The notes below the pieces were generated by a model. The model saw only the letters and a list, made by a program, of their open reading frames with translations. It ran no database searches and had not been told where the DNA came from. Of a stretch of 64,000 nucleotides of DNA, positions 4,470 through 43,511 are shown in pieces. The position numbers and the translations under genes are program-made. The stretch comes from Candidatus Nomurabacteria bacterium (lineage in GTDB: Bacteria; Patescibacteriota; Patescibacteriia; HK-STAS-PATE-3), in NCBI GenBank assembly GCA_023898465.1, contig CP060223.1, positions 160,001-224,000 of the forward strand, read 5' to 3'. Within the stretch, counting starts at the first letter, position 1. The number at the start of each line of letters is the position of its first letter.

Positions 4470-4476
4470 ATATATC

Positions 4477-7400: not shown

Positions 7401-9123
7401 GTTTTGTTTAAATGACGATAATAACTGGAAAGCCCGAAGGGAGCCCGGAGGAGGTAATTTCTTTGAGATCGAAGTAGTTTTTAATACTACTACCGGTAGG
7501 TTAGACGCTTTTAAACTATGGGGTAATGATAAAAGTGGAGATTACGGTGGTTTTGAGGCAAATGTTTCAGTCCAACTGCGTGAAACCTGTAATAAAATTG
7601 TGAAGGTGGTAGATGAAAATGGTCAAAATAAAGCTTGGGCAAGCCGATTATCAATTGGAAGTGGCTATACTATTCGCGACATTAATTATGTACTTACGCA
7701 GGATTTGGCACCTTATGGTGGTGCAGTAACAAGCGCTGGTGATCCATCCACCTGGACTGAAAAATTATACGTTGAACAACCGAGGACAAATGAAAATTTC
7801 ACCTTCCCATATCAATCTCGAGCAGGTTCACCGTTTGCTTGCAAAGGTGATTGTTCAAGTAGGGTTTGTATAGGTGGGGGCTCAACTGAGGGCGCAATCT
7901 GTCATACTGCTGACGATTGTCGAGATAATTCAGGAAACCAGGGCGTTTGTGCTGGTGTAGGAGTGTGTTCTATTTCTCAGAAAGCCTGTCAAGGTAATTT
8001 TAGTGAATCGGGTACTTGCTTAGCGCCTGATGGAACAACGTTAACTGCAGATAAATGTTGTTCCCTAGATAATGCAAGTGATATTTGTATAGGGGGTGCA
8101 GCCAGTATTCGAACTAGTCAGGTATACAATACTGACGATGAATACCAGTGTGAAAAATCCGGCGCTTGGTGTGGCTGTAATAGTCCGACAGATTGTAGTA
8201 ATGTCAATGGTGATACTCTTTGCGAGAGCTATCAAGACGGTGATACATGTAAGGCGATCGCACCCGCAAGTATTTTTAAACGCGCTTTTGCAATTAATAA
8301 CTTGCAGCGTATCTTTTCCGAAAGCTATGGATTCTGGACCTGGAGTCAAAAACAAGGAAAATATATAGCTCAAGAAGGGGCAGAGGATTGGTCGCCACCA
8401 ACTAAGCAATGCCTTGTTTGTAATACTTCACCACAAAAGGCCTGCGACCAGCTTGGAACAACATCTCAATGTGGAGGTGCAACTTGTAATCTTATTAGTG
8501 TTCGAGGAACATATAATACGACTGTTCCCGCGGCAGATTACTGTGGAGTGCGCCCACGGACGTATAATTTTTCGGTAAATGATCAGCAGTCAGCGGATGT
8601 TTCCGATGGATCCTGGGTAAACTTTAAATTTAATTCGACAGCTGATAGTGAGCAGTTGCCGTTAGACTCCCTCTTAATTGATTGGAGCGATGGTCAGCAG
8701 CAATCAGTTTACTTCCCTTATGCGCCAAAATCTGATGCAGGAAATCCACATAACTTGAGTCATCGCTATTTTTGCAGCCCGACGACTCTTGAGAATCTCC
8801 CTACGTGTAACAGTGATCCAAAATTACGAACTTATCCTTGTGCTGGTCCGACTGGAGGGGAGAAACAATATTGTGTATATCAACCTCGCGTGGTTGTTAA
8901 AGATAATTGGGGTTGGTGTAATGGCGTGCCAGCTGATTTTCAAGAAGGCTCAGCATGCCCTTGTGCCGACGGGCAATTCTGTCATCCTCAATATAATATA
9001 TGTGTAGATAATGATTATCTTAACCTCTCATGTGAATCAAGTGATATAAACTTCCCACCGAGCTGGCAAGATTACGCGCCAAACAAAACTATTGAGGTGC
9101 ACGTGCAGCCAATTGGAACTTAG
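4477..9123 (+). CDS. Giant secreted cysteine-rich protein of about 1550 aa, with signal peptide, N-terminal FN3-like domain, and many CxxC/EGF-like Cys clusters.
   Basis: A long ORF with a signal-peptide-like N-terminus (MRISLFLLLLGVSVLSSSNGAGAAG; the alternative start ATG is at 4525). An FN3-like segment follows (VVISNVRINDLTTGYADIGWNTNLPSDSIIEWG...YEYRVGS). Cys is abundant throughout. Coding is uniform and no strong antisense ORFs are present. Confidence 0.8.
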   Translation: MNFMRYSFLQVDAKKLMRISLFLLLLGVSVLSSSNGAGAAGSVVISNVRINDLTTGYADIGWNTNLPSDSIIEWGVIGGGLPNQVAASDLVTTHQLRLEPLAADTVYEYRVGSKLDSEAESDRAWFPDSGTITFSTPSGGGGGSDEGPRLTNIQVNANCCSGTFTFSTNEPSAYKITITDGPNAVGNSSTSAPGNFLNDWSVAYPADFVNNIPLLASSSYEYRIELTDPEGNYRSYGPLPFRTGLNQFDYVFTPGVCAEDNTPLGQCNEDGFYCGPGGLVINCEVCGFQCQVGETCRNGGACTTDPGLGNDSYQCNPPSCYGRACVNSGSACSTDADCPGSSCQEGVFLSPAGPGCYASWNQCNANTVVQVDRDRVCNKWMTCRTQTQVTNPTTQTTENLCYDLAACAAIGPNGECAKPLFGKYCVGDALRFCSTGNDCESGLCKPASGTYCAVPRRPSPTEPYEYVPCDVNEGGTNNPTCLPFDSNGKCTEFQPENVTYVSPIDVQKIKYLSGSVKAGLRWNTGVSFTYDGQFPWYFMPQDGSVVSLGNEAFENQESTTITSSNGTQQTVIDYTTSPWSAYGRRGSDNSEATITVVPEDGTGQSNPNHILKIDPTDAGSYCRGGVNDGNACSGDVDCGGVADSCVEEFSGAQAPSSPFSTLNGAKYIISFKIRSSVPEGQTIQARIMSPNGSVSELWRGEVTTSWQGIVANPVPVKGGSGWLQFVRLSDNSDPFYIDDVSLNVALGVSKTNNAEQLNYVPRSCRLYPSEDSLLCQYRDDSGVRYKGWYGYCLEKDPKFADRCISWWPVDIIGGETDVYGTFGSEIQAGYSDRSPLYYCVEAEGVTGGDELDHDGDENDVPVSEVSDGWRLLRSTMQGYESENGKCNTMRLWYGIASKGLLGGCDDKDFFGDTDGDCEWSGCDGKADYSVFHFDDSNNDPAHFQWDPADEYYKNEIIQICIDEKATTHSDWHIGRFCLNDDNNWKARREPGGGNFFEIEVVFNTTTGRLDAFKLWGNDKSGDYGGFEANVSVQLRETCNKIVKVVDENGQNKAWASRLSIGSGYTIRDINYVLTQDLAPYGGAVTSAGDPSTWTEKLYVEQPRTNENFTFPYQSRAGSPFACKGDCSSRVCIGGGSTEGAICHTADDCRDNSGNQGVCAGVGVCSISQKACQGNFSESGTCLAPDGTTLTADKCCSLDNASDICIGGAASIRTSQVYNTDDEYQCEKSGAWCGCNSPTDCSNVNGDTLCESYQDGDTCKAIAPASIFKRAFAINNLQRIFSESYGFWTWSQKQGKYIAQEGAEDWSPPTKQCLVCNTSPQKACDQLGTTSQCGGATCNLISVRGTYNTTVPAADYCGVRPRTYNFSVNDQQSADVSDGSWVNFKFNSTADSEQLPLDSLLIDWSDGQQQSVYFPYAPKSDAGNPHNLSHRYFCSPTTLENLPTCNSDPKLRTYPCAGPTGGEKQYCVYQPRVVVKDNWGWCNGVPADFQEGSACPCADGQFCHPQYNICVDNDYLNLSCESSDINFPPSWQDYAPNKTIEVHVQPIGT

Positions 9124-9126: not shown

Positions 9127-12100
9127 ATGAAATTCTTTTTGAGACTTACAGGTCGGATGCGAGAAAAAAGGGGACTAGGTCCGACTGTGCTTGTGAGTGT
9201 CTTTATTGTTGCCGCACTGGTACTTTTCTTTCCTGAGAGTCGCGCCTATGCCGCAAGCACGGGAGATAAGGTAGCACTCTTCTTTATTGAGAATTTCATG
9301 TACCCGGTGGTGCAGTTTTTGGCGAACGTATTGATTGTGGTAATAAATATCCTCGTCGCCGTTGCGCAGTACAATGGATTTATCAATGCTCCGGCAGTAG
9401 AAAAAGGTTGGGTGATTGTACGCGATCTCTCCAACATGTTTTTCATTGTCTTTTTGCTTATTATTGCGTTTGGTACCATATTTAAAATCGAAGCGTATCG
9501 TTACAATCGCATTCTTGGTAAGCTAGTTATTTTTGCTTTCTTGATTAACTTTTCAAAGTTTGTTGCTGGATTTTGGATAGACATCGGACAGGTGATCATG
9601 TTGACCTTTGTGAACGGGTTTAAGGACGCAGCAGCTGGTAATTTAGCCTCCGGTCTGGGATTAGACAAAACGCTAGAACTTTCAAACAGTCCACTTCAGA
9701 ACATTGACATCACGAGCAAAGCGCTTTATGGCGCTATTATTCTTGCCTTAATCCTCCTAGGGATTGCCGTTGTAGTGACGCTCATTATTACGGTGTTGTT
9801 GCTTTATCGTATTGTGATGTTATGGATATTGATTGTTTTTTCGCCTTTGGCTTTCCTTACCCGTATTTTTCCAAATACGACCAAATACTCTGATCAGTGG
9901 TGGGGTGAGTTTAATAAGAACATCATTGTTGGACCGGTGCTCGCCTTTTTTCTCTGGCTTTCATTAACTGTTATTGCAACAAGCAATGGAAATCTTGCCA
10001 CAGACTTTCAGTCAGTAAGTACGCAAGAGACTACCGGATTATTAGGCACGGCAAATGAGGCTGGTGAAGGCACTGGTCAGACGATTTCCGCCGCCATCAC
10101 TACGATAGGTGAGTCTGATCGTCTACTTTCCTACATGATTACCATTGGTCTCTTGTTAGGCTCTTTGCAAGCTGCACAACAACTCGGTGCTGCTGGGGGT
10201 CGCTGGGCCGGTTCAATGTCAGAGAAACTGAAGACCGGTGGTTTAAGTGCGGCCGGTGTTCTGAGCGGAGTAGCTGCGGCTCGACTTGCCTTACGAGGAG
10301 GAAAGGCTGGTGCAGAGCGTGTCGGGAGTACCGCATGGCGAACTGCGGTTACGAAATCAAAGGTAGGCAATCGACAGATACTGGCACCTTTAACCAGGAA
10401 ATACTGGGAAGGGTATGCACAGCGTGGGGCTGAGCAGCAGCAAGTCCTTGATCGTCGCATGATGGCCCGTGGGCGCACCATGGCTGATATTGTCCGTGAA
10501 ACCAAGCTCTATGGTGGTGGCGGTGACTTAGCCGTGGGCACCTACATTGAAGACACTGAACGCGCCTTGATTAACGAGGGCTATAATGAAAAACAAAAAA
10601 GTTTAGGAAAAAATCCTAGCTCGGAAAAGGTTGTTCAAGAAATGTGGAGCGCCAAAGCACAAAAAGGTGAACAAGGTATTACTTCAAAAAACAGTGGAGC
10701 GCTTCTGGGTGCTAGAAATGGAAATTGGGACGATCTTAACCAAATGATGTTTTTTAATAAGGAGCTTAAATCAAACATTGAAAAATACGGGCCTGACCCT
10801 GATCAAATCCCTGCAGACGTAAAAAGTAAGCTACTTGAAGAATGGGGCTTTAGTACTGATAGTGCCATTGATGAATGGGAAGATGTGGTGAATGAAAGTT
10901 CGAAACACATGCGTGTCATTATGATGAATTATCTAGGCCTGTCACGTAAGTATGATCCAGAATATCTAGCGGCTCAGGAAGCACAAAAGAGAGGGAAGAA
11001 CATCCATATCATGCGTCGTGAAGGCGAGGCTGGTGACGCAGGTGCTGCAAAAGAATATAAAGAAATTATGCAAAAATCCCAGCAACAAGCTATGAACGAA
11101 GCTAAAAACGCTGGAATTGATGATCGCAATCGACTCATAGCCTTACAGTGGGCCGGTGATGAAGCACTTAGTGTGGGTCAGCACGTTGAACAGCGACATG
11201 GACTCTTTAATGAAGAAGAGGGGTATAGCTATATTGGCACCCTAGAAAAAATGGCAGATGATTCTTACGGTCTGCTGAACAAAACAGAATCATCCAAAGT
11301 TATGGAGCGCATGTCGCCTCATGCCATTACTCCGCGCTATTTTGATACGGAAACAGGTGAGATAGACTATAATACTGACGCATCTGAATGGAGCGAGATT
11401 GGGAAACGGATGTTTAAATTCTTTGGTAAGTTTACCAACCGTGAAATTGGACGAATGTCGGGCCGTGTCGGTGAACAAATTATTGGACTTGATGGTGTTG
11501 TAGGAAAGAAAAATGTAATCTTTGATGCAAAAGGTCAATTTTACGAAGGCGAAGGAACAGATGAAGAAAAGAAAGCGCGTCGAGCTGAATCACAACGTCG
11601 GTGGGAGGCTATGTATAGTCAAGACTCACTTTCCGCGAAGAAATTATATATGAAGGTGTTTACCGGAAGTGCTGACGGATTTAAGGATTGGGATAAAGGT
11701 GGACAAACAATAAAAGGATGGACTCCTCCAGCACCGACAGAGGCGGAAAAAGCAGCTGTAAAAAAAGCTGAGGCTGAGGAAAATACAGAGACGGCTAATA
11801 AGGCAACAGGTGAAGAAAAAACATCTACGTCCGATACCGCGCAAAAAGATGAAACTAAATCGCCCGGAGGAGTGGTTTTGACTCCAGGTGCTCAGTTTAA
11901 GGCAGAACAAGAGGGGGAGGTAAAAACATCAGATAGAAGTAGTCAAACTCCTTCAGTAGAGCCTAGTGCTGATGAAAAAGCGCCTTATAATCGAGAACAT
12001 ATGCAAGCCTCTGATAGTTATGGCAGATTGGCGAATTCTTTGACCGCCTATCATGATGAATTGCCAAAATCGGCTGATGAGTTACGTACAACTATTAGCG

Positions 12101-12345
12101 AGCTTGGTCGTAACGTAACAGATGCGGTTGATCGTTTGAATAATATTCAGAGCAATGTAAAAGCTCCAGACTTAAAAAATGAAATAGGCGGTCTGGTAGA
12201 TAAATTGAAGACCCATCAGGAAAACGGAGAATCAATTCGCTTTAATCGAACCCCGGCTGATGAGCAGCGAGAATTCTTTAAGCGCAGTACAGAATTACTT
12301 GGTGAGGTGGGTAAGGTAATAAAAAAGTCAGTTAAAGAAAAGTAG
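9127..12345 (+). CDS. Polytopic membrane protein with a long hydrophilic coiled/charged C-terminal domain. It is VirB6/TrbL-like by architecture and context.
   Basis: It has a signal-like N-terminus plus at least six hydrophobic helices in the first ~300 aa, followed by ~750 aa of hydrophilic K/E-rich sequence. It lies upstream of the VirB3-like and VirB4 genes in the same operon. The VirB6 assignment is inference from topology. No diagnostic motif was verified. Confidence 0.45.
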   Translation: MKFFLRLTGRMREKRGLGPTVLVSVFIVAALVLFFPESRAYAASTGDKVALFFIENFMYPVVQFLANVLIVVINILVAVAQYNGFINAPAVEKGWVIVRDLSNMFFIVFLLIIAFGTIFKIEAYRYNRILGKLVIFAFLINFSKFVAGFWIDIGQVIMLTFVNGFKDAAAGNLASGLGLDKTLELSNSPLQNIDITSKALYGAIILALILLGIAVVVTLIITVLLLYRIVMLWILIVFSPLAFLTRIFPNTTKYSDQWWGEFNKNIIVGPVLAFFLWLSLTVIATSNGNLATDFQSVSTQETTGLLGTANEAGEGTGQTISAAITTIGESDRLLSYMITIGLLLGSLQAAQQLGAAGGRWAGSMSEKLKTGGLSAAGVLSGVAAARLALRGGKAGAERVGSTAWRTAVTKSKVGNRQILAPLTRKYWEGYAQRGAEQQQVLDRRMMARGRTMADIVRETKLYGGGGDLAVGTYIEDTERALINEGYNEKQKSLGKNPSSEKVVQEMWSAKAQKGEQGITSKNSGALLGARNGNWDDLNQMMFFNKELKSNIEKYGPDPDQIPADVKSKLLEEWGFSTDSAIDEWEDVVNESSKHMRVIMMNYLGLSRKYDPEYLAAQEAQKRGKNIHIMRREGEAGDAGAAKEYKEIMQKSQQQAMNEAKNAGIDDRNRLIALQWAGDEALSVGQHVEQRHGLFNEEEGYSYIGTLEKMADDSYGLLNKTESSKVMERMSPHAITPRYFDTETGEIDYNTDASEWSEIGKRMFKFFGKFTNREIGRMSGRVGEQIIGLDGVVGKKNVIFDAKGQFYEGEGTDEEKKARRAESQRRWEAMYSQDSLSAKKLYMKVFTGSADGFKDWDKGGQTIKGWTPPAPTEAEKAAVKKAEAEENTETANKATGEEKTSTSDTAQKDETKSPGGVVLTPGAQFKAEQEGEVKTSDRSSQTPSVEPSADEKAPYNREHMQASDSYGRLANSLTAYHDELPKSADELRTTISELGRNVTDAVDRLNNIQSNVKAPDLKNEIGGLVDKLKTHQENGESIRFNRTPADEQREFFKRSTELLGEVGKVIKKSVKEK

Positions 12346-12351: not shown

Positions 12352-13755
12352 ATGGTTACCTTTGAAGATTTTTACGAATATCACGACGTAGAGCGTCTAT
12401 CAGTCGAGGAAGTACAAAAGGCTGAGGTGTTAGCGGCTATTCGTGACGCATTAACACATGCCTGGTATCAAACCCAGCCTGGTAAGGCTCATTCGGTCCT
12501 TAGTTTTATCGACCAAAAATTTTCTACAATACCAAAGAGTACACTTCCTGAAGAGATAAAAACGCTCCTTTTTCAAATACAATGTATTGTCGAATTTTCT
12601 TCTCTCCCTTCCACCAGTCCGGAAGAAGTTCAAGAATACATGCAAAAGAAATCTCGGGTACCTCTTTTCATTGAAGAGCTTGAATTACAGGACATCATGC
12701 CGAGACTCATCCAGGTGCATTTAGGCTTCCCTGATTTGTTCTTACGTTGGTTTGGATCGGCAGTACAAGGCTTGCGAGCAGGTGAGCAAGAGATCGGCAA
12801 TTCTCGCATCCAATTGTTTAATGGTAAGGTGAGTAGTCCAACAATAGGCTCGTGGACGCAGGACTATGAACGATTTGCCGAAAATCATCCGGCTGATGGT
12901 GACGTAGTTATTGCTGAGTACATGACCAAGAGTCCGAATATTCGTTCCTTGGAAGATTCGGATAAAGCAGCCATTCGTAAGCTCTTTACTTGGTTTAACC
13001 TTTTATCAATCGATCAAAGTCCAATTTTGAGGGTGTCAGAGGCCAGTCGCCCGCGAGTAAGTCCTTCTAGTGTGTCAAAAATACCAGATACTCTTACACA
13101 AGAGCCAGATAATGATGTACTTGCACCAGTTGCCCCACAAAAGAGTATGGGTAAAATAAAACCTGTTCAAAGTGCAGCACAAGAGAAGCCGGAGCGAGAC
13201 GTGAGTCCACAAGAGTTATTACTCACTAATCTGCATAATTCAAGCAACCTAGTTGAGCGCTTTGAACGTTTAGAAAAAGATTTGCCCCCGGCTGGACCAA
13301 AGAGCATTATGCAACTTACTGCATTGGCGGAAAAAGCCTTAGCAGGGCAGGAGAAGTCAGGTCGTGTAATCGCTGGAATATTTCAAATAGTGCGAGCAAG
13401 GGGATTACAAGCCTTACTGAGCGACGCTTCATTTGTGAACCTTATGCGTAAGACAATGGCGCCGGAATTAGAGCAGCGTCTGCGCCTTACGCATGACCAG
13501 GCCGTGCAGGTAAGCGATTCACCGGCCAATCGCATGGTGATCTTAAAAGAGTTTTTTAAGGCTCTCTTTAATACTGCCACCGGATCTGAGGCTGATGCGG
13601 CACGCTTAATGGTGCATGTGGCAAGTATTGTGCCAGAAACAATGGCTGGTCCAGAAGCAGGTTTTGCCTATTTTGATATGAGCGACCAGCATTTCCACTG
13701 GTCTTTGACTGAAGTGCGCTCAGCCGATGGTGTGCTTCGTAACAGAATTCCGTAG
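12352..13755 (+). CDS. Hypothetical cytoplasmic protein within the T4SS-like operon.
   Basis: A 467-aa ORF with no TM segments and no motifs I recognise. Confidence 0.6.
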   Translation: MVTFEDFYEYHDVERLSVEEVQKAEVLAAIRDALTHAWYQTQPGKAHSVLSFIDQKFSTIPKSTLPEEIKTLLFQIQCIVEFSSLPSTSPEEVQEYMQKKSRVPLFIEELELQDIMPRLIQVHLGFPDLFLRWFGSAVQGLRAGEQEIGNSRIQLFNGKVSSPTIGSWTQDYERFAENHPADGDVVIAEYMTKSPNIRSLEDSDKAAIRKLFTWFNLLSIDQSPILRVSEASRPRVSPSSVSKIPDTLTQEPDNDVLAPVAPQKSMGKIKPVQSAAQEKPERDVSPQELLLTNLHNSSNLVERFERLEKDLPPAGPKSIMQLTALAEKALAGQEKSGRVIAGIFQIVRARGLQALLSDASFVNLMRKTMAPELEQRLRLTHDQAVQVSDSPANRMVILKEFFKALFNTATGSEADAARLMVHVASIVPETMAGPEAGFAYFDMSDQHFHWSLTEVRSADGVLRNRIP

Positions 13756-14268: not shown

Positions 14269-15606
14269 ATGATAGATCTCGCAACGATTAATGCCAGTAC
14301 GATTGCTCAGCCGAAAACGCTGGAAGCAGTACGTGCAGAAGTCGATGATGTTGTCTCGCTAGGTGATGTATCGCGGGCAGGGGTTTTGTTATCGTATTTA
14401 CAGCGACAACTTCCCCAATCTCCAAATGATCCAATACGTAACAATTATCAAGAAATACTTCAATCGCTTGAACGGCTTGTTGGAGAGGCAAATCCCGCGG
14501 ATGATGCGCTCATTTCAGAAGAACGTACTCGTGTAGCAGTAAGAGATTCTTCGGGCAAGGTACAGCTCTTTAGTCATGGTCGCTTCCAGAGTCCAGAAGA
14601 GCAAAAACAGCAATTGCGCGAGCGTCCTTCCACTCCTCCGAGCTTCCGGAAGAGCATTGGAAATGTACAAAATAGTACTGAATCGCGAGCCGCGCAAAAG
14701 TCAGTCCCTGTTTCCTTTGATGTTCCGGAGGATGAAGAAGAGATTCGAGAGCATACCAATCGACTTTCCGGACTGCGTTTAAATGATCAGCATAATTATG
14801 AGGCAATGGTGGAGAGTATTATCTCCCATCATCATTTAGAGTTCCCAGATGAGCAGCTAGCGAAACGTTTCAGCACTATTGCAATCTCACGTTTGAAGGG
14901 TATTCGTGATGACAAAGAGGCAAAAGAAATCTTTACTCGTTCGCCAAAGGTCGGTGGCATGGGATTGGCGCCGGAATTAGCCGATGCGGTGCTGCAGTCT
15001 TTGGAGTCAGGCGCTGAAGTGCTTGATGAAAGCTTGCCTGAGGTGCATCCTCAACAGAAAGCGCACGTTCCGACGCCTACACCTCCAGCACCTTCGCGAG
15101 TGCTGCCACATCTAGCAAATCAGCCTACCAAGGTGATGGCGCATCAGGCTATCCCTACGCCGCCTCGTACGCAAACACCAGCAGCAACATCATCTGAGTC
15201 ACGCAAAGTACTTCCTAAGCGTCAAACAGTGCAGGCGAGCGGTCGTCCAACTTTAGACGATATTAAATCTCCTTCGCGTCGACTGGTTGGTCCGGTTGAG
15301 GAGTTGCAGCACCTAAGTCTAGAGGATTTTCGTAATTGGGGATCTACTCCAGCGGATAGTGTACGAAAAGTGTATGAGAAAATTGCCGTGCTTGGACAAG
15401 AATCATTTGGCAAACGCATTGAGGGTGTACAAGCCTGGCGTCAGAGTCCGGTGCATCAACTTTACTTATCCATTAGTCGTGAGAGTTTAGAAAAGGGGAC
15501 GGATGTGAGTAAAGTGATTAGTGAGCGGACGCAGCAAAATAAAGCCTCCTTGAGTGAGGCAGAGTTTCATGCGGTAGTTGATTTAAATACTAAGCTTCGT
15601 TTCTAA
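14269..15606 (+). CDS. Hypothetical protein with a Pro-rich middle region.
   Basis: A 445-aa ORF with a Pro/Thr-rich low-complexity segment (PTPTPPAPSRVLPHLANQPTKVMAHQAIPTPPRTQTPAATSS) and no TM. Confidence 0.6.
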   Translation: MIDLATINASTIAQPKTLEAVRAEVDDVVSLGDVSRAGVLLSYLQRQLPQSPNDPIRNNYQEILQSLERLVGEANPADDALISEERTRVAVRDSSGKVQLFSHGRFQSPEEQKQQLRERPSTPPSFRKSIGNVQNSTESRAAQKSVPVSFDVPEDEEEIREHTNRLSGLRLNDQHNYEAMVESIISHHHLEFPDEQLAKRFSTIAISRLKGIRDDKEAKEIFTRSPKVGGMGLAPELADAVLQSLESGAEVLDESLPEVHPQQKAHVPTPTPPAPSRVLPHLANQPTKVMAHQAIPTPPRTQTPAATSSESRKVLPKRQTVQASGRPTLDDIKSPSRRLVGPVEELQHLSLEDFRNWGSTPADSVRKVYEKIAVLGQESFGKRIEGVQAWRQSPVHQLYLSISRESLEKGTDVSKVISERTQQNKASLSEAEFHAVVDLNTKLRF

Positions 15607-16118
15607 TGCAGTTTGTTGTACCTCAATTCATCGACGTAGAGGATAAAGTCATCGGGCCAATATCAGTGCGGCAGTTTATTCTGCTACTCGTTGGCGCTGG
15701 CATGATTTTCTTAGAGTACGAATTAATTTACCAGTTAAATAACAACATTTGGGTCTTTCTCTTTAGCGCAATTATTACTGGTTTGTTGGACATCGTTTTT
15801 GCCTTTGTGAAGGTGAACGGACGACCTTTTCATTTTTTTCTCCTCAACTTCTTAGTGACCATGCGTGATCCACGTTTACGTATCTGGAGTAAAGAAGTGA
15901 GCCTAAAGGATTTAAAGCGTGAACAGGCAAATGCAAATCCAGTTCAGACGGTAGTGGAGCCAACCAAAAAGTCGCTCACACCCTCAAAGTTGGCAATGCT
16001 TTCTTTGGTTGTTGATACTGGAGGAGCCTTTAAAGCTCCACAGAAGATTCGCGAGGGAAGTGTGAGCGTGAAGCGCGATGAGGCCCCCTCGTTAAGTGAT
16101 GATGAGTTTCGCAGTTAA
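15606..16118 (+). CDS. Small two-TM membrane protein, VirB3/PrgI-like by position.
   Basis: A 170-aa ORF with two hydrophobic helices near the N-terminus (FILLLVGAGMIFLEY...WVFLFSAIITGLLDIVFAF). It sits immediately upstream of the VirB4 genes, as in Gram-positive-type T4SS loci. Its start overlaps the previous gene's stop. Confidence 0.5.
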   Translation: MQFVVPQFIDVEDKVIGPISVRQFILLLVGAGMIFLEYELIYQLNNNIWVFLFSAIITGLLDIVFAFVKVNGRPFHFFLLNFLVTMRDPRLRIWSKEVSLKDLKREQANANPVQTVVEPTKKSLTPSKLAMLSLVVDTGGAFKAPQKIREGSVSVKRDEAPSLSDDEFRS

Positions 16119-16127: not shown

Positions 16128-16829
16128 ATGGCAGCAAAAAAAATTCAGGACAACAAAAAGAAGCGATCAGTAACGCCAACCCAGCGTTATATCGATATTC
16201 TTGAAGTGAAGGATGATATTGTCGTTCTAAAAGATGGCACGATTCGAGCTGTCCTTTTAGTATCCTCAATTAACTTTGCCCTGAAGTCAGAAGAAGAACA
16301 GAATGCGGTGATCGCCAGCTATACCCAGTTCTTAAACTCTTTAGACTTCTCTATTCAAATCGTTATCCAGTCTCGCCGTTTAAATATTGATGACTACCTC
16401 GAGCGATTAAAGCAGAGTGAGCGAGCGCAACGTAACGAGCTCCTCCGCATGCAGACAAGAGAGTATCGAGAGTATATTGCCGAGCTGATAGATATTGCCG
16501 ACTTAATGGCGAAGCGTTTCTACGTTGTTGTGCCATTTATGCCGCACTCTGATAAACCAAAACGTTTCTTCTCGCGCATACTTGAGGCAGTATCGCCATC
16601 GACAGTTATTCACCTTAAACAGCAGCAGTTTCTCACTTATCGCAGCGAACTTATGAAGCGGGTTGATTATGTTATTGATGGCTTGAGCGCAGCTGGCTTA
16701 AAGGCGGTTATGCTTGATACGCAGAGTTTAATTGAATTGTATTACAATACCTACAATCCAGAATCAGTTGGCCAGCAAAAGTTTGCTGATCTCTCAAAGG
16801 TAAATGTAGAAGGAGGCGGCAATGCCTGA
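16128..16829 (+). CDS. VirB4-family N-terminal domain protein. This is the stand-alone N-terminal half of a split VirB4.
   Basis: A 233-aa ORF. The segment DDIVVLKDGTIRAVLLVSSINFALKSEEEQNAVIASYTQFLNSLDFSIQIVIQSRRLNIDDYL resembles the conserved N-terminal region of VirB4/TraC/PrgJ-type ATPases. It ends at a TGA that overlaps the start of the ATPase ORF. Confidence 0.55.
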   Translation: MAAKKIQDNKKKRSVTPTQRYIDILEVKDDIVVLKDGTIRAVLLVSSINFALKSEEEQNAVIASYTQFLNSLDFSIQIVIQSRRLNIDDYLERLKQSERAQRNELLRMQTREYREYIAELIDIADLMAKRFYVVVPFMPHSDKPKRFFSRILEAVSPSTVIHLKQQQFLTYRSELMKRVDYVIDGLSAAGLKAVMLDTQSLIELYYNTYNPESVGQQKFADLSKVNVEGGGNA

Positions 16830-18801
16830 TATTGATTTTTCCAAAGCAGCTGGCCAGACGCCTTCACCCTCGCCTTTACCAAAGTCAGAGCGGCAACGTC
16901 AGCAAGATGAGCGACTAGAGGCCGAGCAGGAGCGCGAACTACTTGAGGCTGAGCGGGTCTATCGAGCTGGAGTAGTTACTGTTCGCGATTTAATTGCTCC
17001 GGCGGCCATGAAAGTAGAGGCAGACTTCCTGCGATTGGGAAGTCAGTATGTCCGTACTCTCTTTGTTGTTTCATACCCGCGCTATATTACTGTTGGCTGG
17101 TTTGCGCCGATTATTAATTTCAATATCCCGCTAGATATCAGCATGTTCTTCTATCCGATTGAGTCAGCGGTTATTTTGAAGCAGTTGCGAAATAAGGTGG
17201 GTGTACTTGAAGCACAAATTATTTCCGATGCTGAGAAGGGCGCCCCGCGTGATCCAGTACGAGAGACAGCGCTTCGTGATATTGAAAAATTGCGAGATGA
17301 CTTAACGCAAGGTACAGAAAAGTTTTTTCAATTTGCGCTTTACGTAACCATTTACTCTTCGCGTAAAGACCACCTTGATTTACTGACAGAAAAGATCGAA
17401 TCAATTTTAGGAGGTCGATTAATTTACTCTAAGCGTGCCTTCTTCCAGGCTGAGCAAGGTTTCCACTCGACGCTTCCCCTAGGGAGTGATCAACTGCAGG
17501 TGACCTATAACATGAGTTCATCGCCGATTGCGTCGTCTTTCCCCTTCATTTCCTCTGATCTCACCTCAGATAATGGTATTCTCTACGGCATTAATCGCCA
17601 CAACAACAGCTTGATTCTCTTTGATCGTTTCAGCTTGCAGAACGCAAACTTTGTTGTCTTCGCCACGGCTGGAGCTGGTAAGAGCTACGCCATCAAGCTA
17701 GAGATTTTGCGTAGCTTAATGTTGGGCGCCGATGTCATCGTGGTAGATCCAGAAATGGAATATCGTCACTTATCTGATGCCGTTGGAGGGACCTACATTA
17801 ATATATCCCTGAATTCGGATTCAAAGATTAACCCCTTTGACCTACCGCGCCCGTCTCGCGAAGATGAAAAACCGGCTGATATTATTCGTTCCGCCGTTAT
17901 TACCTTAAAGTCTCTCATTCGTCTGATGTTGGGCGAGTTAAATCACGAAGAAGATTCTTTGATTGACCGGGCATTATTAGAGACGTACGCGAAGAAGGAT
18001 ATTACCCCAGATTCAGATTTGCAGAATATAGACCCGCCACTTATGAAGGATTTTGAAGAGGTCTTAGGCGATATGGTGGGAACAGAAGATCTCGTGCAGC
18101 GTTTGAAAAAATACACTGAAGGTACTTTTGCCGGCCTCTTTAACAGCGCTACAAATATTGAATTAAATAATCAGCTCGTAGTGTTCTCGGTACGTGATCT
18201 CGAGGATGAATTACGACCAATCGGAATTTCCACAATTGTCTCTTATATTTGGAATATTGTACGTTCTCAACTGAAGCGTCGCATCCTCGTGATTGATGAG
18301 GCGTGGTGGCTCATGCAACATGAGGACTCAGCTAAGTTTATTTATGCTTTAGTGAAGCGATGTCGTAAATATTATCTTGGAGTAACGACTATTACGCAGG
18401 ATGTGAATGACTTCTTGCGATCACCCTATGGCCAAGCGATTGTAAACAACTCCGCTTTACAGTTACTTATGAAGCAATCGCCAGCCGGTATTGATATCGT
18501 GCAGAAGACTTTCTTGCTCACTCAAGGTGAAAAGTATCTCTTACTTGAGTGTAATGTAGGTGAGGGTATTTTCTTCGCTGGAGCAAAACACGCGGCTATT
18601 AAAGTTGTAGCGAGTTATACCGAGGACCAAATTATTACCTCTGATCCACGCCAGCTCCTAGAGATCGAACAAGCTAAGGAAGAATTCGATGAAGCTTATG
18701 CGGCCGGTCAAACTGATTTGCCGCAAGATCAATTCGGCACAGCAAAAAATGAGCCACTCGAAGCAAAGCGTTCGCTAAGTGATACGGAGGGCTTAGGTTA
18801 G
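16822..18801 (+). CDS. virB4: VirB4/TrbE/CagE-family type IV secretion ATPase (C-terminal ATPase portion).
   Basis: Walker A is VVFATAGAGKSYAIK. Walker B and the DEAW motif are RILVIDEAWWLM. The N-terminal 60 aa form a disordered Q/E-rich linker. A perfect AGGAGG Shine-Dalgarno lies 5 nt upstream of the ATG. Confidence 0.85.
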   Translation: MPDIDFSKAAGQTPSPSPLPKSERQRQQDERLEAEQERELLEAERVYRAGVVTVRDLIAPAAMKVEADFLRLGSQYVRTLFVVSYPRYITVGWFAPIINFNIPLDISMFFYPIESAVILKQLRNKVGVLEAQIISDAEKGAPRDPVRETALRDIEKLRDDLTQGTEKFFQFALYVTIYSSRKDHLDLLTEKIESILGGRLIYSKRAFFQAEQGFHSTLPLGSDQLQVTYNMSSSPIASSFPFISSDLTSDNGILYGINRHNNSLILFDRFSLQNANFVVFATAGAGKSYAIKLEILRSLMLGADVIVVDPEMEYRHLSDAVGGTYINISLNSDSKINPFDLPRPSREDEKPADIIRSAVITLKSLIRLMLGELNHEEDSLIDRALLETYAKKDITPDSDLQNIDPPLMKDFEEVLGDMVGTEDLVQRLKKYTEGTFAGLFNSATNIELNNQLVVFSVRDLEDELRPIGISTIVSYIWNIVRSQLKRRILVIDEAWWLMQHEDSAKFIYALVKRCRKYYLGVTTITQDVNDFLRSPYGQAIVNNSALQLLMKQSPAGIDIVQKTFLLTQGEKYLLLECNVGEGIFFAGAKHAAIKVVASYTEDQIITSDPRQLLEIEQAKEEFDEAYAAGQTDLPQDQFGTAKNEPLEAKRSLSDTEGLG

Positions 18802-18817: not shown

Positions 18818-19396
18818 ATGCGTAGAATTTTTATCATCATCATCGCGCTTGTACTCTTGATTACCATTGCTGCCCTCATTCTCATCTGGATTGGTGGGGG
18901 AGACGCTTTTAATACCAACGAAAACACCAACACCACAACAAATACTAGCTTGCCGCTTGCAAATACAAATACCACAGTAAACAATAACGTGAATTCGAGT
19001 GTAGATGTTTCCCCTCAGAGCACCTTAATCGGTCAAGGGCGAAGTTTTGCCGAGCGATATGCCAGCTGGTCTCGAGCCGACTTTGATGAGTATATTAGTA
19101 GTCTCAGCGCCTGGATTACTCCTTCCTTCGCAACCGTGCTACAAACAGATAATGAAGCTCTTGATGCGGCAAAAACCGTTCAGTCGGTATCAAGTCGTGT
19201 ATTAACTAGCTCCTATAAGTCCTGGGAAGAGGATAGCTCAGCAAGTATTTCATTTGTGATGGATCGCACAGAACGACGCGACAATGAGCCAGATGCTCAC
19301 TATTATGAAACCTTGGTACTTGACTATACTTTCCTAAATGGAGAGTGGATGGTAAATGGAGCAAGTTGGCAGCCATCACGAGTCCAGCCTGAATAA
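18818..19396 (+). CDS. Membrane-anchored protein with an N/T-rich linker and a C-terminal globular domain (possible VirB8-like component).
   Basis: It has an N-terminal TM (IFIIIIALVLLITIAALILIWIG), a TNTNT-type low-complexity linker, then about 130 aa of globular sequence. The VirB8 analogy rests on size and topology only. Confidence 0.4.
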   Translation: MRRIFIIIIALVLLITIAALILIWIGGGDAFNTNENTNTTTNTSLPLANTNTTVNNNVNSSVDVSPQSTLIGQGRSFAERYASWSRADFDEYISSLSAWITPSFATVLQTDNEALDAAKTVQSVSSRVLTSSYKSWEEDSSASISFVMDRTERRDNEPDAHYYETLVLDYTFLNGEWMVNGASWQPSRVQPE

Positions 19397-19418
19397 TCAG
19401 AATCTTTGCAGTATTTTC

Positions 19419-20552
19419 ATGAGCTTTCGCTATAAAAAATTCGTTGTAGGAATGCTCACCGTTTTTCTCGGGTTTGGGGCGAGCTTTGTAGTCTCACCAG
19501 CTTCGGCACAGACAAGTTTACCCACCTGCTCATCAAGCGAGGTTTTAAATCAAATCGCTGATCACATGCAGCTCAATGTAGCGCTTCCAGGGATTACTAA
19601 CACAGTACAGTGCCTTTCGGAAACAGGTGACCAAGTAAAAACTATCCACGTTTTACAAGCAGAGTCAGGTCAGGAGCTTTCTACGTTTGTGAGAGGCTTC
19701 TATGTGTACTTTGTCTGGATTGTTGGTATTTTAGCAGTCGTGATGACTATGTACGCTGGCATTCAATGGTTAACTGCTGCTGGCAATACTTCACGGATTG
19801 AGAATGCTAAATCTACGATGAATGGTGCGCTTATCGGACTTGTATTGACGCTTACTTCATATGTTATTTTACAGGCAATTAATCCTGATTTAGTGACATT
19901 ACGAGTGCCTTTTGTTGAGCCGGTTGAAACAAGTGTTATTTCTGGGACATTTTGTCCACCAGCCCAGCAGACACAAGCTGAAAATTCAGGTCTGGTGTGC
20001 GGCGAACAACTCAAGTACTCGGATGCAAATGGTGCTGAGCACTTTTGTTTAAGTAGCGCCTGTCGAGCTGCTGATGGGGGAACTGATTGTCTGCCTTGCA
20101 CAGGGGACGGTGTTCCGTACGTGTTTTGTAAGGATCGTGGATACACCTGCGGTTACTACGACTCATTTATTTCAGTGGGGGCTACCATTACTAACTTAGT
20201 GCCAGATAAAGAACTAAAGTCGTTGAAGTTATATCGTACTAACCCAAATGCGCTTGAGGATGATAATGAATTACCATGGAAGCTTGTCAAAGAGTTTAAT
20301 GCAGATCAATTAACCGAAGGCGCGGTGCTGGAATTTACGAGCGATGATTCAGTCCCCCTTATCCAGTTTAAGTTTTCTGCGACATTCCGTGAAAGTTTTT
20401 GGAGTAATCGAGATTGTGACGCAGTAAATCCCGATGGATCAGTAAAACAACTATGGTTTGAATTACCCTATGCGCCTGGGTCAGTTGTTCACCAAGATTT
20501 TACTTTTGATATTCAAGGCATTTACAATAACAGCGAAGGCTGTATTGGTTAA
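19419..20552 (+). CDS. Secreted protein containing a conserved two-helix hydrophobic hairpin module and a Cys-rich C-terminal domain.
   Basis: A signal peptide (MSFRYKKFVVGMLTVFLGFGASFVVSPASAQ) is followed by the hairpin (RGFYVYFVWIVGILAVVMTMYAGIQWLTAAGNTSRIENAKSTMNGALIGLVLTLTSYVILQAINPDLVT) and a C-terminus with many Cys. The hairpin is about 90% identical at protein level to a segment of the 22446 gene. Confidence 0.7.
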   Translation: MSFRYKKFVVGMLTVFLGFGASFVVSPASAQTSLPTCSSSEVLNQIADHMQLNVALPGITNTVQCLSETGDQVKTIHVLQAESGQELSTFVRGFYVYFVWIVGILAVVMTMYAGIQWLTAAGNTSRIENAKSTMNGALIGLVLTLTSYVILQAINPDLVTLRVPFVEPVETSVISGTFCPPAQQTQAENSGLVCGEQLKYSDANGAEHFCLSSACRAADGGTDCLPCTGDGVPYVFCKDRGYTCGYYDSFISVGATITNLVPDKELKSLKLYRTNPNALEDDNELPWKLVKEFNADQLTEGAVLEFTSDDSVPLIQFKFSATFRESFWSNRDCDAVNPDGSVKQLWFELPYAPGSVVHQDFTFDIQGIYNNSEGCIG

Positions 20553-21814: not shown

Positions 21815-22449
21815 TGGAGAATAAGAAGCATAATTGGCTCTTACCTTTATTAGTAGCGCTTGCTGCCATAGTCCTGATTGGGTTTACCTGGTGGACTATT
21901 AGCATCCCAACTACGCCGAATCTTTCCACGCGTTTCCCAACTGTACATTTAACTGATCCGGTTCGCGGCGGACAAGATGCGCAGGTGACTATTGTTGAGT
22001 ATAGCGACTTCCAATGTGAATTTTGTCAGACTTGGCATACGGTTGCTCAGCAGATACTAGATAAATATGGCGACAAGGTAAGATTGGTATGGAAAGACTT
22101 TCCCTTAACCGATCTACACCCAGAGGCAAAAGCAGCCGCAGAAGCAGCGCGTTGTGCTCAGCAGCAATTTGCTTTTTGGGAATACCACGATCAACTTTTT
22201 GCACGTCAGAGCGAGTTAGGCACAGCGCTTTATACTGATATTGCCCAAGACCTTGGCCTAGATGCACAAGCCTTTACTCGTTGCCGAGGTTCAGGTGATG
22301 CAGACACTTTCATTACGCAGAGTCAGCAGGAAGGCGTGACCCTTGGGGTAAGTGGCACGCCAACCATCTACGTTGGTCAATACATTTTCAAAGAAGCGCC
22401 AAGTTTTTCTACGGTTGATTCACTTGTTTCTTCATTACTGTCTGAATGA
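21811..22449 (+). CDS. dsbA: DsbA/BdbD-family thiol-disulfide oxidoreductase, membrane-anchored.
   Basis: The catalytic region is VEYSDFQCEFCQTW, with CEFC as the CxxC active site. The cis-Pro loop is GVSGTPTIYV. It has an N-terminal TM. It overlaps its upstream and downstream neighbours by 4 nt each (ATGA). Confidence 0.85.
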   Translation: MMENKKHNWLLPLLVALAAIVLIGFTWWTISIPTTPNLSTRFPTVHLTDPVRGGQDAQVTIVEYSDFQCEFCQTWHTVAQQILDKYGDKVRLVWKDFPLTDLHPEAKAAAEAARCAQQQFAFWEYHDQLFARQSELGTALYTDIAQDLGLDAQAFTRCRGSGDADTFITQSQQEGVTLGVSGTPTIYVGQYIFKEAPSFSTVDSLVSSLLSE

Positions 22450-23636
22450 AGCGAAGGGATCTTTTCTTTATCTTACTCGTGGGAATTGTTGGGGGAGCTT
22501 TTTTCTCTTTGCAGACGCCGACAGCCCAGGCTTCAGAATGTTGTTGTGTAGAAATTGAAGTAGTGGGAGGAGCACCGATACAGGACTGTAAGGTGTTGGA
22601 TGAATGTGCCTTACCTTATTTACCAACAGATCTTGACCCACTCCAATGTGCAGGTGTAAACACAGATATTGAGTCAAGCACTACAAGTGATCCGATTTAT
22701 TTTACGCCTAACGCACCTATCCCAGGAGTTTTTGAAGGACCACAAGAAGTAGACGGCACACTACTGAGTCGCTACATTCGCTCTTTCTATATTTATTTTG
22801 TTTGGATTGTTGGTATCTTAGCAGTAGTGATGACAATGTACGCTGGCATCCAATGGTTAACCGCGGCCGGTAATACTTCGCAAATAGAGAATGCTAAATC
22901 CACCATGAACGGAGCCCTGGTTGGTTTAGTGTTAACGCTGACCTCGTATATTATTTTACAGGCGATTAATCCAGCACTTGTGACGCTTCAAGACCTCTCT
23001 ATCTTTTCAGTTCCAAGTCAGTTGATAGGAGAAAAAGGAGAATCAAGTGCGCGGGGTGATACCGCCGCAGGTTTACCAGAATCAATACAGGATTTAAGTG
23101 GAGTGAGTAATGTCACCAAGTGGGACGACCTGATTCGAACGATAAGTAATGAGAATAACGTCAATCCATATTATGTGAAAGCAATCATGATGATTGAGTC
23201 GCGCGGAAATGCAAACGCGATTTCACCCGTTGGCGCATGCGGATTGATGCAGGTAATGCCGGCAAATGCGAATGGCGTATGCCTGGTCGGTGAAGCACGA
23301 GCAGAGGAGAATATTCGAGCTGGTGTAAATCTCATTGCTCGACTCATTCGAAATACCTGTCCGAGCTCAGCTAGTCTAAAAAGTGGTAAAACTGTGGAGT
23401 GTAATCCACAACAGACAAATTGCTATAACGGCAGCTGGCATTATGTGATTGCGGCATATAATGGAGGAGTGGGGGCTAATTGCTCCTCACAGACTTGTGC
23501 GCCGGCTGGACCAGGCTTAAAAGGTCAGACGTGGTGGGAATGCACAGATAATGGTGGCTTTGCGGAAACTAGAAATTATGTAAAATCGGTAGAAAAGATG
23601 TATACTATTGTGCAAGGTTGGGGGGGTCTGAACTAA
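22446..23636 (+). CDS. Lytic transglycosylase (SLT domain; VirB1-like cell-wall hydrolase) fused to the two-helix hairpin module.
   Basis: The SLT catalytic motif is IMMIESRGNANAISPVGACGLMQVMPANANG (ES...SPVGA.GLMQ.MP). It has a signal peptide and a Cys-rich N-domain (ECCCVEIEVVGG...). The hairpin FYIYFVWIVGILAVVMTMYAGIQWLTAAGNTSQIENAKSTMNGALVGLVLTLTSYIILQAINPALVT matches the 19419 gene. Confidence 0.85.
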   Translation: MKRRDLFFILLVGIVGGAFFSLQTPTAQASECCCVEIEVVGGAPIQDCKVLDECALPYLPTDLDPLQCAGVNTDIESSTTSDPIYFTPNAPIPGVFEGPQEVDGTLLSRYIRSFYIYFVWIVGILAVVMTMYAGIQWLTAAGNTSQIENAKSTMNGALVGLVLTLTSYIILQAINPALVTLQDLSIFSVPSQLIGEKGESSARGDTAAGLPESIQDLSGVSNVTKWDDLIRTISNENNVNPYYVKAIMMIESRGNANAISPVGACGLMQVMPANANGVCLVGEARAEENIRAGVNLIARLIRNTCPSSASLKSGKTVECNPQQTNCYNGSWHYVIAAYNGGVGANCSSQTCAPAGPGLKGQTWWECTDNGGFAETRNYVKSVEKMYTIVQGWGGLN

Positions 23637-41882: not shown

Positions 41883-43511
41883 ATGCGACATCTTTCCTCC
41901 ATTGGAACGCTGCTTCTCCTCATCATACTAGGGACGACTAATGCTTTGCCTGTGCATGCACAATGGGTCGAACCTGATACTGGTGAATTTCCTACCACCG
42001 GAGGAAGCACGCAAGCGCCTTTAAATACTTCCAACGTAGATCAAACAAAGACTGGATCATTCTTTTTACAGCGCGGCTTAACAGCGGAGAATGGAGTGAG
42101 TTCAAGCGGCGTACTCACGGTACAAAATGGTAATTTGCGTGTTACGCCAGACGGCGGCGGTCAAATTTGTCTCAACGGTGTATGTAAAAGCTCGTTAGAA
42201 ACAAGCTCGGATAACTATGTACGTTTGTCTGCGATTGATCCTGACCTCGGCTTTGTGCTACTCGGTGATGGCTCAACTAACGAAGGTTATTTAGACATTA
42301 GTTCGACCGAAACAATTGGCTTATACGGTATTGCCGGTGATCCTATAACAAAAAACACCTACGGTTTATTGGGTATTGCTGGTGCTGATGATGCTCCGTG
42401 GCCTAATTTTTCAGCCGGTGTTTTTGGTGAGGCTGGTGCAAATACAAGTCAATCGATTGGTTTATCTGGTGTGAGTCCCGATCCAGACGGCCCTGCCTAT
42501 GCAGCCTACTTTAAGGGGCGAGTGAATATTGTGGGATGTCTTGAGTGGAATGGAGGCACTTGCTTAAATGCGTGGCCAAGTGGATTACCAAGCGGTGAGT
42601 ATGTTGCGCTTCTTGAAGATGACGATGAGCCGCAAATAGGAAATATTGATTTATCGACCAGCTCGACAACAGTTTTTACTAGCGTTGTGTTAGGCGATGA
42701 CCCCTCGGGCTTAAGTTTACCTGTGACCTGTGGAGACGGTATTTGCAACAATAGCGAGAGTGGGCTTACTTGTGCGATCGATTGTTTCACCATTATCAAC
42801 CTCCAAGTTACCAATATTACGGATGGCAGTGCTACCGTTACCTGGCGTACGCTGATCAATGCTGATTCATATGTTGAGTATGGATTGACCAGCGATTTTG
42901 GTAGTGATGTATATGATGCCTCGATGGTGACGATGCACTCTTTGCAAATACATAGCTTGAATCATGATACGCATTACTATTTCCGGGTCCGCACAACGAC
43001 CGGCTCGGGCATTTCTCAAACCAGCTCGATACAATCATTCACAACCCTACTTGATCAGACAGCACCTAATGTGCCGGCTAATTTGCGAACTACAACCCCA
43101 GCACCAGATCGAGTGCCATTAGCGTGGTTCCACTCTCAGCTTGATAATCCGGGTGGATCTGGTTTTAAAGAGTTCATTGTTTATCGTGATGGATCACCCT
43201 ACGACACTACCGGTAATACCTACTATGTAGATTATTTCCCAGATCCTGGATATGACCACGTCTATTGGGTGACTGCTGTGGATAATCGTAACAATGAGTC
43301 AGAGGCTTCAAATCCACTTATCGTGCATGTACCAACTCCGTGTATTAGCGACCTTGACTGTACTGATCCGCAGTATCCAGTTTGTTATGGTGCATTGGGG
43401 TGTGGCACACCTCCGCCCGGAGGCTCGCCAGTCATGCTTAAAGAAATTCCCTTAGAGTATTCCCAATATCAGGATCCAGGTGGTTGGGATGAAGGAGGTG
43501 GCTGGTACTAA
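41883..43511 (+). CDS. Secreted paralog with N-terminal EPD-motif domain, FN3 domains, and Cys-rich C-terminus.
   Basis: Signal peptide, then QWVEPDTGEFP, QICLNGVCKSS, TCGDGICNNSESGLTCAIDCF, two FN3-like modules (VTWRTLINADSYVEYG...THYYFRV; ...YWVTAVDNRNNESE), and a C-terminal GGSPVMLKE motif. Confidence 0.8.
   Translation: MRHLSSIGTLLLLIILGTTNALPVHAQWVEPDTGEFPTTGGSTQAPLNTSNVDQTKTGSFFLQRGLTAENGVSSSGVLTVQNGNLRVTPDGGGQICLNGVCKSSLETSSDNYVRLSAIDPDLGFVLLGDGSTNEGYLDISSTETIGLYGIAGDPITKNTYGLLGIAGADDAPWPNFSAGVFGEAGANTSQSIGLSGVSPDPDGPAYAAYFKGRVNIVGCLEWNGGTCLNAWPSGLPSGEYVALLEDDDEPQIGNIDLSTSSTTVFTSVVLGDDPSGLSLPVTCGDGICNNSESGLTCAIDCFTIINLQVTNITDGSATVTWRTLINADSYVEYGLTSDFGSDVYDASMVTMHSLQIHSLNHDTHYYFRVRTTTGSGISQTSSIQSFTTLLDQTAPNVPANLRTTTPAPDRVPLAWFHSQLDNPGGSGFKEFIVYRDGSPYDTTGNTYYVDYFPDPGYDHVYWVTAVDNRNNESEASNPLIVHVPTPCISDLDCTDPQYPVCYGALGCGTPPPGGSPVMLKEIPLEYSQYQDPGGWDEGGGWY

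Follow-up and report, generated by a model that had tools for sequence, protein, structure and literature searches.

The window analysed here is a 64,000-nt stretch of DNA from Candidatus Nomurabacteria bacterium (assembly GCA_023898465.1, contig CP060223.1, positions 160,001-224,000, forward strand). It carries a chromosomal type IV secretion system (T4SS) locus of a bacterium of the Patescibacteria (candidate phyla radiation, CPR). Within this locus, directly after a gene for a small membrane protein, lie two overlapping open reading frames (ORFs), ORF1 and ORF2, which encode the ATPase VirB4 in two parts. The features of this region are as follows.

15606-16118, + strand: PrgI/VirB3-like small membrane protein of 170 aa, the first gene of the PrgI-TrsD-VirB4 module (Pfam PF12666 PrgI, E 1.5e-8, residues 10-93)
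16128-16829, + strand: ORF1, 233 aa, TrsD-like or 'TraC-like', a free-standing counterpart of the first half of the VirB4 N-terminal domain (NCBIfam, Foldseek and BLASTP)
16811-16816, + strand: AGGAGG Shine-Dalgarno sequence for ORF2, read within the 3' end of ORF1, with the 5-nt spacer CGGCA before the ATG
16822-16829, + strand: 8-nt overlap of ORF1 and ORF2, ATGCCTGA, read from the ORF2 start to the ORF1 stop, a layout expected for translational coupling
16822-18801, + strand: ORF2, 659 aa, a VirB4 without its first ~150-200 residues (NF045971, PDB 4AG5 and colinearity with TrsE of pGO1)
17662-17685, + strand: Walker A P-loop ATAGAGKS (ORF2 residues 281-288, from the translation), with G284, G286, K287 and S288 invariant in 25 homologues
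18283-18300, + strand: Walker B ILVIDE (ORF2 residues 488-493, from a motif search), with D492 and E493 invariant in 25 homologues

ORF1 ends at a TGA at 16827-16829, and ORF2 begins at an ATG at 16822-16824, in the +1 frame relative to ORF1. An earlier, sequence-only reading of this DNA had the TGA overlapping the ATG of the ATPase ORF; the two ORFs do overlap by 8 nt, but the TGA and the ATG have no bases in common. The coordinates agree with its placing of the ATPase ORF in the +1 frame with an AGGAGG 5 nt upstream. A stop/start overlap together with a ribosome-binding site inside the upstream ORF is the layout of a translationally coupled pair, and coupling is predicted here. No slippery heptamer is present at the junction GGC-AAT-GCC-TGA, and a promoter and terminator scan of 13.7-25.2 kb returned counts at chance level, with nothing between ORF1 and ORF2. 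A small hairpin, AGGCGGCAATGCCT (16814-16827, + strand, 5 pairs), spans the last Shine-Dalgarno bases and the ORF2 ATG and would suit unmasking by a ribosome terminating on ORF1; hairpins of this kind occurred at chance frequency in the scan (7 found and 10.4 expected).

ORF1 and ORF2 as consecutive parts of VirB4

ORF1 matches three NCBIfam profiles of VirB4: the Mycoplasma model VirB4_plasma at positions 94-233 of 894 (E 3e-12), the CD1110 VirB4 family (NF045971) at positions 11-136 of 752 (E 3.8e-6), and TIGR00929 at positions 18-151 of 792 (E 1e-3). It also matches the NCBIfam TrsD/TraD family NF041427 (positions 24-99 of 201, E 4.5e-7, 29.9 bits); judged by these profiles, ORF1 is homologous to the TrsD/TraD family but lies outside its narrow staphylococcal/Bacillus subfamily. 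A precomputed match to PF26593 ('TraC-like') is recorded on an identical 233-aa product in a Logan contig. An AlphaFold model of ORF1 built with 26 sequences reached a predicted local distance difference test (pLDDT) score of 68.6. When this model was compared with the PDB by Foldseek, the top 14 matches were all TrwK/VirB4 chains of R388 and none else was close (E 2.8e-3, probability 1.0). The modelled ORF1 has the VirB4 N-terminal fold.

Three parts make up ORF2: a variable N-terminal tail (residues 1-~40), a stretch at ~60-244 that corresponds to the latter half of the VirB4 N-terminal domain, and an ATPase domain at residues 245-606. It scores 352.6 bits on NF045971, above the curated cut-off of 325, and covers positions 156-729 of 752 of that profile, 292-893 of 894 of VirB4_plasma, and 240-726 of 792 of TIGR00929. 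The VirB4 C-terminal domain in PDB 4AG5 aligns to ORF2 residues 245-606 (E 2.1e-47). Intact Walker A and Walker B motifs and a 4AG5-like C-terminal domain identify ORF2 as a VirB4 ATPase.

On all three VirB4 profiles the two ORFs occupy consecutive, non-overlapping parts, and on the CD1110 profile no single polypeptide of the pair covers what ORF1 (11-136) and ORF2 (156-729) cover in turn. Their summed length of 892 aa compares with full VirB4 profile lengths of 752-894. When ORF1 and ORF2 were joined into a virtual fusion, VirB4_plasma gave 317 bits in place of 268, a single alignment (residues 173-838) spanned the junction, and the score on NF045971 was 374.3 bits. A real fused protein, the 786-aa TraC/VirB4 of an Alicyclobacillus plasmid, aligns with ORF1 residues 27-110 at its positions 1-86 (7e-10) and with ORF2 at 211-778 (1e-47). 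The alignment to full-length VirB4 that the sequence-only reading had proposed as a check has therefore come out in its favour, with consecutive profile segments and end-to-end colinearity with the Alicyclobacillus protein. Relative to single-chain VirB4 proteins (TrwK of R388, PDB 7O41/8RTB; CD1110; Mycoplasma Mbov_0397; Alicyclobacillus TraC), ORF1 and ORF2 cover the profile positions in identical order, whereas the chain in the window is interrupted inside the N-terminal domain and the split pair has ~100 extra, poorly conserved residues around the junction (ORF1 tail 210-233 and ORF2 tail 1-~40).

The position of the interruption departs from what the sequence-only reading had supposed. 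In that reading the 233-aa ORF resembled a VirB4 N-terminal domain; it placed the cut between this domain and the ATPase domain, and took the start of ORF2 for the canonical linker between them. Homology of ORF1 to the VirB4 N-terminus is borne out by the profiles and by Foldseek, but ORF1 corresponds to only the first half of the domain. The TrwK N-terminal domain comprises residues 15-400 (PMC9259494), and the ORF2 profile aligns to TrwK with residues 147-573 matching 299-735 (probability 95.5%), including ORF2 147-222 against TrwK 299-377. Because 4AG5 begins only at ORF2 residue 245 and the TrwK N-terminal domain spans 15-400, ORF2 retains ~185 residues of that domain, and its residues ~60-244 are assigned to it. 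The break is thereby placed within the VirB4 N-terminal domain, at about TrwK 200-215. Over its first ~40 residues ORF2 is a variable, low-complexity sequence, and the first ~35 consensus positions of the alignment have no majority residue; this N-terminus is better described as a tail inside the N-terminal domain than as an inter-domain linker.

The module represented by ORF1 occurs fused to either of its neighbours. It is fused to VirB4 in Alicyclobacillus and in the CD1110 and Mycoplasma families. In an Embleya sp. plasmid (NZ_CP108778, L085:3638-4684), a 349-aa 'PrgI family protein' combines PrgI (residues 14-101) with an ORF1-like module (145-249), to which the ORF1 profile aligns by hhalign with a probability of 96% (4.8e-9). 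Next after this fusion come an XF1762-family gene and, beyond it, a 643-aa VirB4 beginning at CD1110 position 202. Weak matches of ORF1 and ORF2 to the actinobacterial SCO6880 family hint that the Embleya-type arrangement may be common in Actinomycetota. In the archaeal Haloplanus rubicundus plasmid (L086:3962-5539), a 526-aa protein begins with a TrsD-like module and ends with a DUF7139 domain, and directly after it lies a 774-aa VirB4 that starts at CD1110 position 160. In all cases examined, namely the window, the Staphylococcus aureus plasmid pGO1, Embleya and Haloplanus, the partner VirB4 is without exactly the region that ORF1 supplies.

VirB3-VirB4 fusion proteins have been described in Campylobacter plasmids, in work cited in PMC12102498. 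The order of parts in these and in the Embleya PrgI-TrsD fusion is mirrored by the gene order PrgI-ORF1-ORF2 of the window, with the difference that the window has three separate polypeptides. These arrangements show VirB3/PrgI, the VirB4 N-terminal module and the ATPase as one functional chain, cut and joined at differing points by evolution.

Conservation of the split and its explanation

Relatives were collected by scanning one genome per species. At least 573 loci were returned, of which 80 were kept, from Kerfeld-, Uhr-, Falkow-, Komeili-, Buchanan- and Parcubacteria and other Patescibacteria; 77 of these had readable downstream DNA, and the start of ORF2 was taken as the first in-frame ATG. 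At every one of the 77 loci a stop codon closes the ORF1 homologue 0-60 nt from where homology ends, and a VirB4 gene comes next. Relative to the ORF1 homologue, the ORF2 homologue lies in frame 0, 1 or 2 at 20, 27 and 30 loci, respectively, and the distance between the two ranges from -26 to +192 nt (11 overlaps, 43 gaps of 0-20 nt, 8 of 21-60 nt and 15 of >60 nt). The ORF2 homologue has its own ATG in 75 of the 77. With all three frames and such varied spacing across the loci, a one-base sequencing error is unable to give this pattern.

The wider databases agree with the two-gene layout. ORF1 has >7,695 homologous clusters at 90% identity, with E values down to 1e-136, and ORF2 has 8,000 database homologues. 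The best 120 homologues of ORF1 are all 218-249 aa long and all carry Pfam PF26593, the best 120 of ORF2 are all 599-682 aa, and no fused ORF1-ORF2 protein is present among these 240. The best 120 ORF1 homologues also end at a common C-terminal motif, ...L-x-L/V-E, which marks a conserved natural end. The junction, including the ATGCCTGA overlap, is base-identical in an independent Logan assembly (run SRR12358676), where the genes are called as 233 and 659 aa. The closest relative, L001, is 85-89% identical to the window and keeps both the ATGCCTGA overlap and the AGGAGG despite differences at many third positions of codons. In a comparison of the window with a relative of 85-89% identity, ORF1 has proportions of nonsynonymous and synonymous differences (pN and pS) of 0.10 and 0.80, with synonymous sites saturated, values that indicate purifying selection on ORF1. 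Taken as a whole, the comparative data mark ORF1 and ORF2 as a real, conserved gene pair, far beyond chance ORFs.

The sequence-only reading had argued from the strong Shine-Dalgarno sequence to a genuine two-polypeptide VirB4 and against a sequencing frameshift, and had proposed looking for the same split in related genomes. The outcome is upheld: a separate ORF1 homologue and VirB4 gene are found at 77/77 loci, in three frames, and the Logan junction is identical. The argument from the Shine-Dalgarno sequence is not decisive, however, because a strong AGGAGG is confined to the window and L001, and 55 of the 77 relatives have no match to the Shine-Dalgarno motifs searched.

Two further observations concern the relatives. 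Where the two genes do not overlap, the spacer is often a long hairpin (seen in L046, L065, L080, L061, L023, L030 and L037, at locus positions ~6640-6900) whose arms are short tandem repeats of 5-8 nt, such as (CGCATAA)n...(GTTACGC)n over 192 nt in L046 and (CCCTAAA)n in L065. These hairpins have minimum free energy z-scores of -4 to -8.4, differ in sequence from genome to genome at a constant position, and occur in 15-20% of relatives, with none in the window; they may act as intercistronic stem-loops by which the TrsD:VirB4 ratio is set, or may be generic palindromic repeats of these genomes. In addition, ~30 loci (L001, L014, L019, L020, L024 and about 25 others) come from 'MAG TPA_asm' records titled 'uncultured Gammaproteobacteria bacterium'. 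They carry a Patescibacteria-type TrsD-VirB4 locus with 55-89% identity to the window, and the organism label looks wrong.

The interpretation favoured here, with a probability of about 0.8, is that VirB4 is truly split, in colinear fashion, into ORF1 and ORF2, with two polypeptides produced from adjacent, overlapping genes. ORF2 would be translated from its own ATG, using the Shine-Dalgarno sequence inside the end of ORF1, and terminating ribosomes would probably re-initiate there, a coupling suggested by the overlap and by the position of the ribosome-binding site within ORF1. Coupled translation would yield roughly equal amounts of the two products. As their colinearity and the known fusions suggest, these would then come together non-covalently and restore a whole VirB4 N-terminal domain. 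The corresponding domain in R388 is wrapped by VirB3 and is the only part of VirB4 through which the dimer contact is made (PMC9259494). The fusion pattern and the fixed gene order PrgI-TrsD-VirB4 suggest, somewhat less firmly than the split itself, that ORF1 bridges the upstream PrgI/VirB3-like membrane protein and the ATPase.

Several results weigh against this interpretation. The score of ORF1 on NF041427 is far under the curated cut-off of 200 bits. Compared by sequence with PDB chains, ORF1 and its 26-sequence profile found no VirB4 and gave chance-level matches only, and by hhalign the ORF1 profile aligns weakly to TrwK (probability 1.9%, E 0.026), which provides a rough register only. 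Because the similarity of ORF1 to Gram-negative VirB4 is very weak, the break is placed at TrwK ~200-215 from the profile coordinates and the alignment of ORF2. A single-sequence AlphaFold model of the virtual ORF1-ORF2 fusion had a pLDDT of 35 and was unusable. Tight coupling is also not universal: 23 of the 77 relatives have spacers of >20 nt, up to 192 nt, so the two products need not be made in equal amounts throughout the clade.

If one virB4 of 890 aa had been broken by a frameshift error of sequencing or assembly, or by a recent pseudogenising indel, the outcome would be what is seen in the window, two adjacent ORFs one frame apart with an 8-nt overlap and the summed size of a full VirB4. 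This alternative is contradicted by the stop at all 77 loci, in all three frames and with spacers of up to 192 nt, by the lack of a fusion in the 240 best homologues and the identical junction in an independent assembly, and by the natural end of, and purifying selection on, ORF1; the chance that it is correct is close to nil. Programmed ribosomal frameshifting or stop read-through could instead, or additionally, produce a full-length fused VirB4. The overlap and the +1 frame in the window are geometrically permissive for this, and in the 20 of 77 relatives in frame 0 read-through of one stop could fuse the products. As frame, overlap and distance (-26 to +192 nt) vary freely and long spacers exist, no recoding signal is conserved; the junction has no slippery motif, and ORF2 has its own ATG at 75/77 loci and its own Shine-Dalgarno sequence in the window. 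Recoding is accordingly regarded as highly improbable.

A different possibility is that ORF1 descends from the VirB4 N-terminus and is now an independent accessory factor, acting for instance as an assembly chaperone or regulator, or partnering PrgI only. TrsD is listed separately, with its function not assigned, in the survey of PMC12102498, where the Gracilibacteria homologues mostly do not lie beside virB4. The module is joined to PrgI in Embleya, with another gene before the ATPase, and to DUF7139 in the haloarchaeon, and the hairpin spacers in 15-20% of relatives could uncouple expression. What makes an accessory factor unlikely is that the partner VirB4 lacks exactly the ORF1 region in every case examined, leaving its N-terminal domain incomplete alone; the fused versions are, moreover, colinear, and gene adjacency and order are strongly conserved.

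Of the twelve VirB4 subunits of R388, only the six 'central' ones bind VirB3. A bolder version of the split can be imagined, in which the free-standing module is a separately dosed adaptor that chooses which VirB4 subunits dock on PrgI/VirB3, with the hairpins tuning the ratio; we consider this a long shot. If it were true, splitting would let the cell set the adaptor-to-ATPase ratio, and TrsD, the most widespread function-less component of monoderm and Patescibacteria T4SSs, would be a VirB3-VirB4 coupling subunit.

The surrounding secretion locus

Further T4SS genes flank the PrgI-ORF1-ORF2 module.

9127-12345, + strand: VirB6/TrbL-like large membrane protein, 1072 aa (Pfam PF04610 TrbL, E 4.2e-5, under the curated cut-off)
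12352-13755, + strand: 467-aa protein without a Pfam match
14269-15606, + strand: 445-aa protein without a Pfam match
19356-20552, + strand: VirB2-like pilin-domain protein (Pfam PF18895 T4SS_pilin, E 3e-10)
22446-23636, + strand: fusion of T4SS_pilin and an SLT lytic transglycosylase (VirB1-like), 396 aa (PF01464 SLT, 3.4e-15; PF18895, 1.3e-8)

PrgI/VirB3, TrsD, VirB4, a VirB6-like protein and VirB2-like pilins, as identified by Pfam and NCBIfam matches, make up the component set of a Patescibacteria-type T4SS in a Patescibacteria genome. Among the window ORFs scanned with Pfam, neither a VirD4 nor a relaxase turned up. The VirB6/TrbL-like gene of 1072 aa is also present on the Logan contig. 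The two genes without a Pfam match, between the VirB6-like gene and PrgI, are conserved and are likewise called on that independent contig, which makes them candidates for unrecognised T4SS components. The pilin-domain protein at 19356-20552 has a cysteine-rich C-terminal extension of ~220 aa, and the protein at 22446-23636 is a pilin-VirB1 fusion with T4SS_pilin (VirB2-like) at residues 108-174 and SLT at 229-345. After the pilin genes the order is a DsbA-like protein, then RadA and RecG.

The window also contains very large proteins (1478, 1563, 1169, 1012 and 771 aa) in two clusters, at 33-9123 and 41883-54756 (both + strand). They have Ig-like, fibronectin-III or purple-acid-phosphatase-N-type domains or are without a Pfam match. 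One cluster is directly upstream of the T4SS genes, and the other is upstream of a PilB-type ATPase of a type II secretion system or type IV pilus (58203-59984). The large proteins of both clusters are probably surface or adhesion proteins.

Comparison with known systems

The arrangement is not unusual: the split is the rule for the clade and has already been described, as TrsD plus VirB4. Quinonero-Coronel et al. 2025 reported 2,272 TrsD homologues, 1,664 of them adjoining virB4 in Patescibacteria (PMC12102498); the Gracilibacteria homologues mostly do not adjoin it (PMC12102498). A TrsD homologue is essential in Southlakia epibionticum (PMC12102498; Wang et al. 2023, PMC10633639). In that survey TrsD is treated as a separate component with 'no function assigned' and 'remote homology to the N-terminal portion of VirB4' (PMC12102498). 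The word TrsD was not found in the main text of Guglielmini 2014 (PMC4027160), so the resemblance of TrsD to the VirB4 N-terminus rests on the citing of that paper in PMC12102498 and on the present tests.

The Patescibacteria T4SSs with TrsD next to VirB4 (PMC12102498) share with the window their component set and a chromosomal locus. For ORF1 and ORF2 alike, the nearest homologues all belong to Patescibacteria, and an identical ORF2 protein has been deposited from a 'Candidatus Nomurabacteria' metagenome-assembled genome (MAG). Nothing substantial differs between the window and the published description, except that the paper does not state outright that the partner VirB4 lacks the TrsD-equivalent portion. 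No statement that it lacks exactly this portion was found in the literature, and a literature search found no paper under 'split VirB4' or on PF26593. The window pair is a routine, already known instance of the published arrangement and is covered by Pfam PF26593 and NCBIfam.

As the standard TrsD-VirB4 arrangement of Patescibacteria and many Firmicutes plasmids, the pair has small discovery value. The gain is interpretive. A concrete, testable role for TrsD is supported by the colinearity, by the break point shared with pGO1, and by the fusions with PrgI on one side and VirB4 on the other: TrsD would supply what VirB4 is missing, the first half of its N-terminal domain, and would likely be the bridge to VirB3/PrgI. 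For annotation, short VirB4 genes labelled 'DUF87/ATP-binding' are not truncated genes. The reading is also relevant to modelling the essential T4SS of epibiotic Patescibacteria.

The TrsD-type layout, in which the gene for a protein of ~200-270 aa is flanked by a PrgI/VirB3-like gene on one side and an N-terminally short VirB4 gene on the other, is found in the window and, with short overlaps, in plasmids of Pontibacillus, Thermoanaerobacterium and C. botulinum. Its counterpart in pGO1 of Staphylococcus aureus (MPF_FATA class, pGO1 subclass) is trsC-trsD-trsE, equivalent to TraC-TraD-TraE of pSK41. The order is the same and the sizes are similar: PrgI-like TrsC has 135 aa, TrsD 227 and the VirB4 protein TrsE 672, against 170, 233 and 659 aa in the window. 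The two systems differ in that pGO1, a conjugative plasmid, encodes a relaxase and a VirD4 coupling protein, whereas the window locus is chromosomal and has pilin-like genes; trsD and trsE are separated by a 14-nt gap, whereas ORF1 and ORF2 overlap. ORF1 matches TrsD by BLASTP (4e-7), ORF2 is colinear with TrsE from residue 21 (TrsE 7) to residue 595 (TrsE 617; E 6e-47), and TrsD plus TrsE align to the VirB4 profiles as a single stretch. By these alignments, the break point of the window pair is that of trsD/trsE in pGO1.

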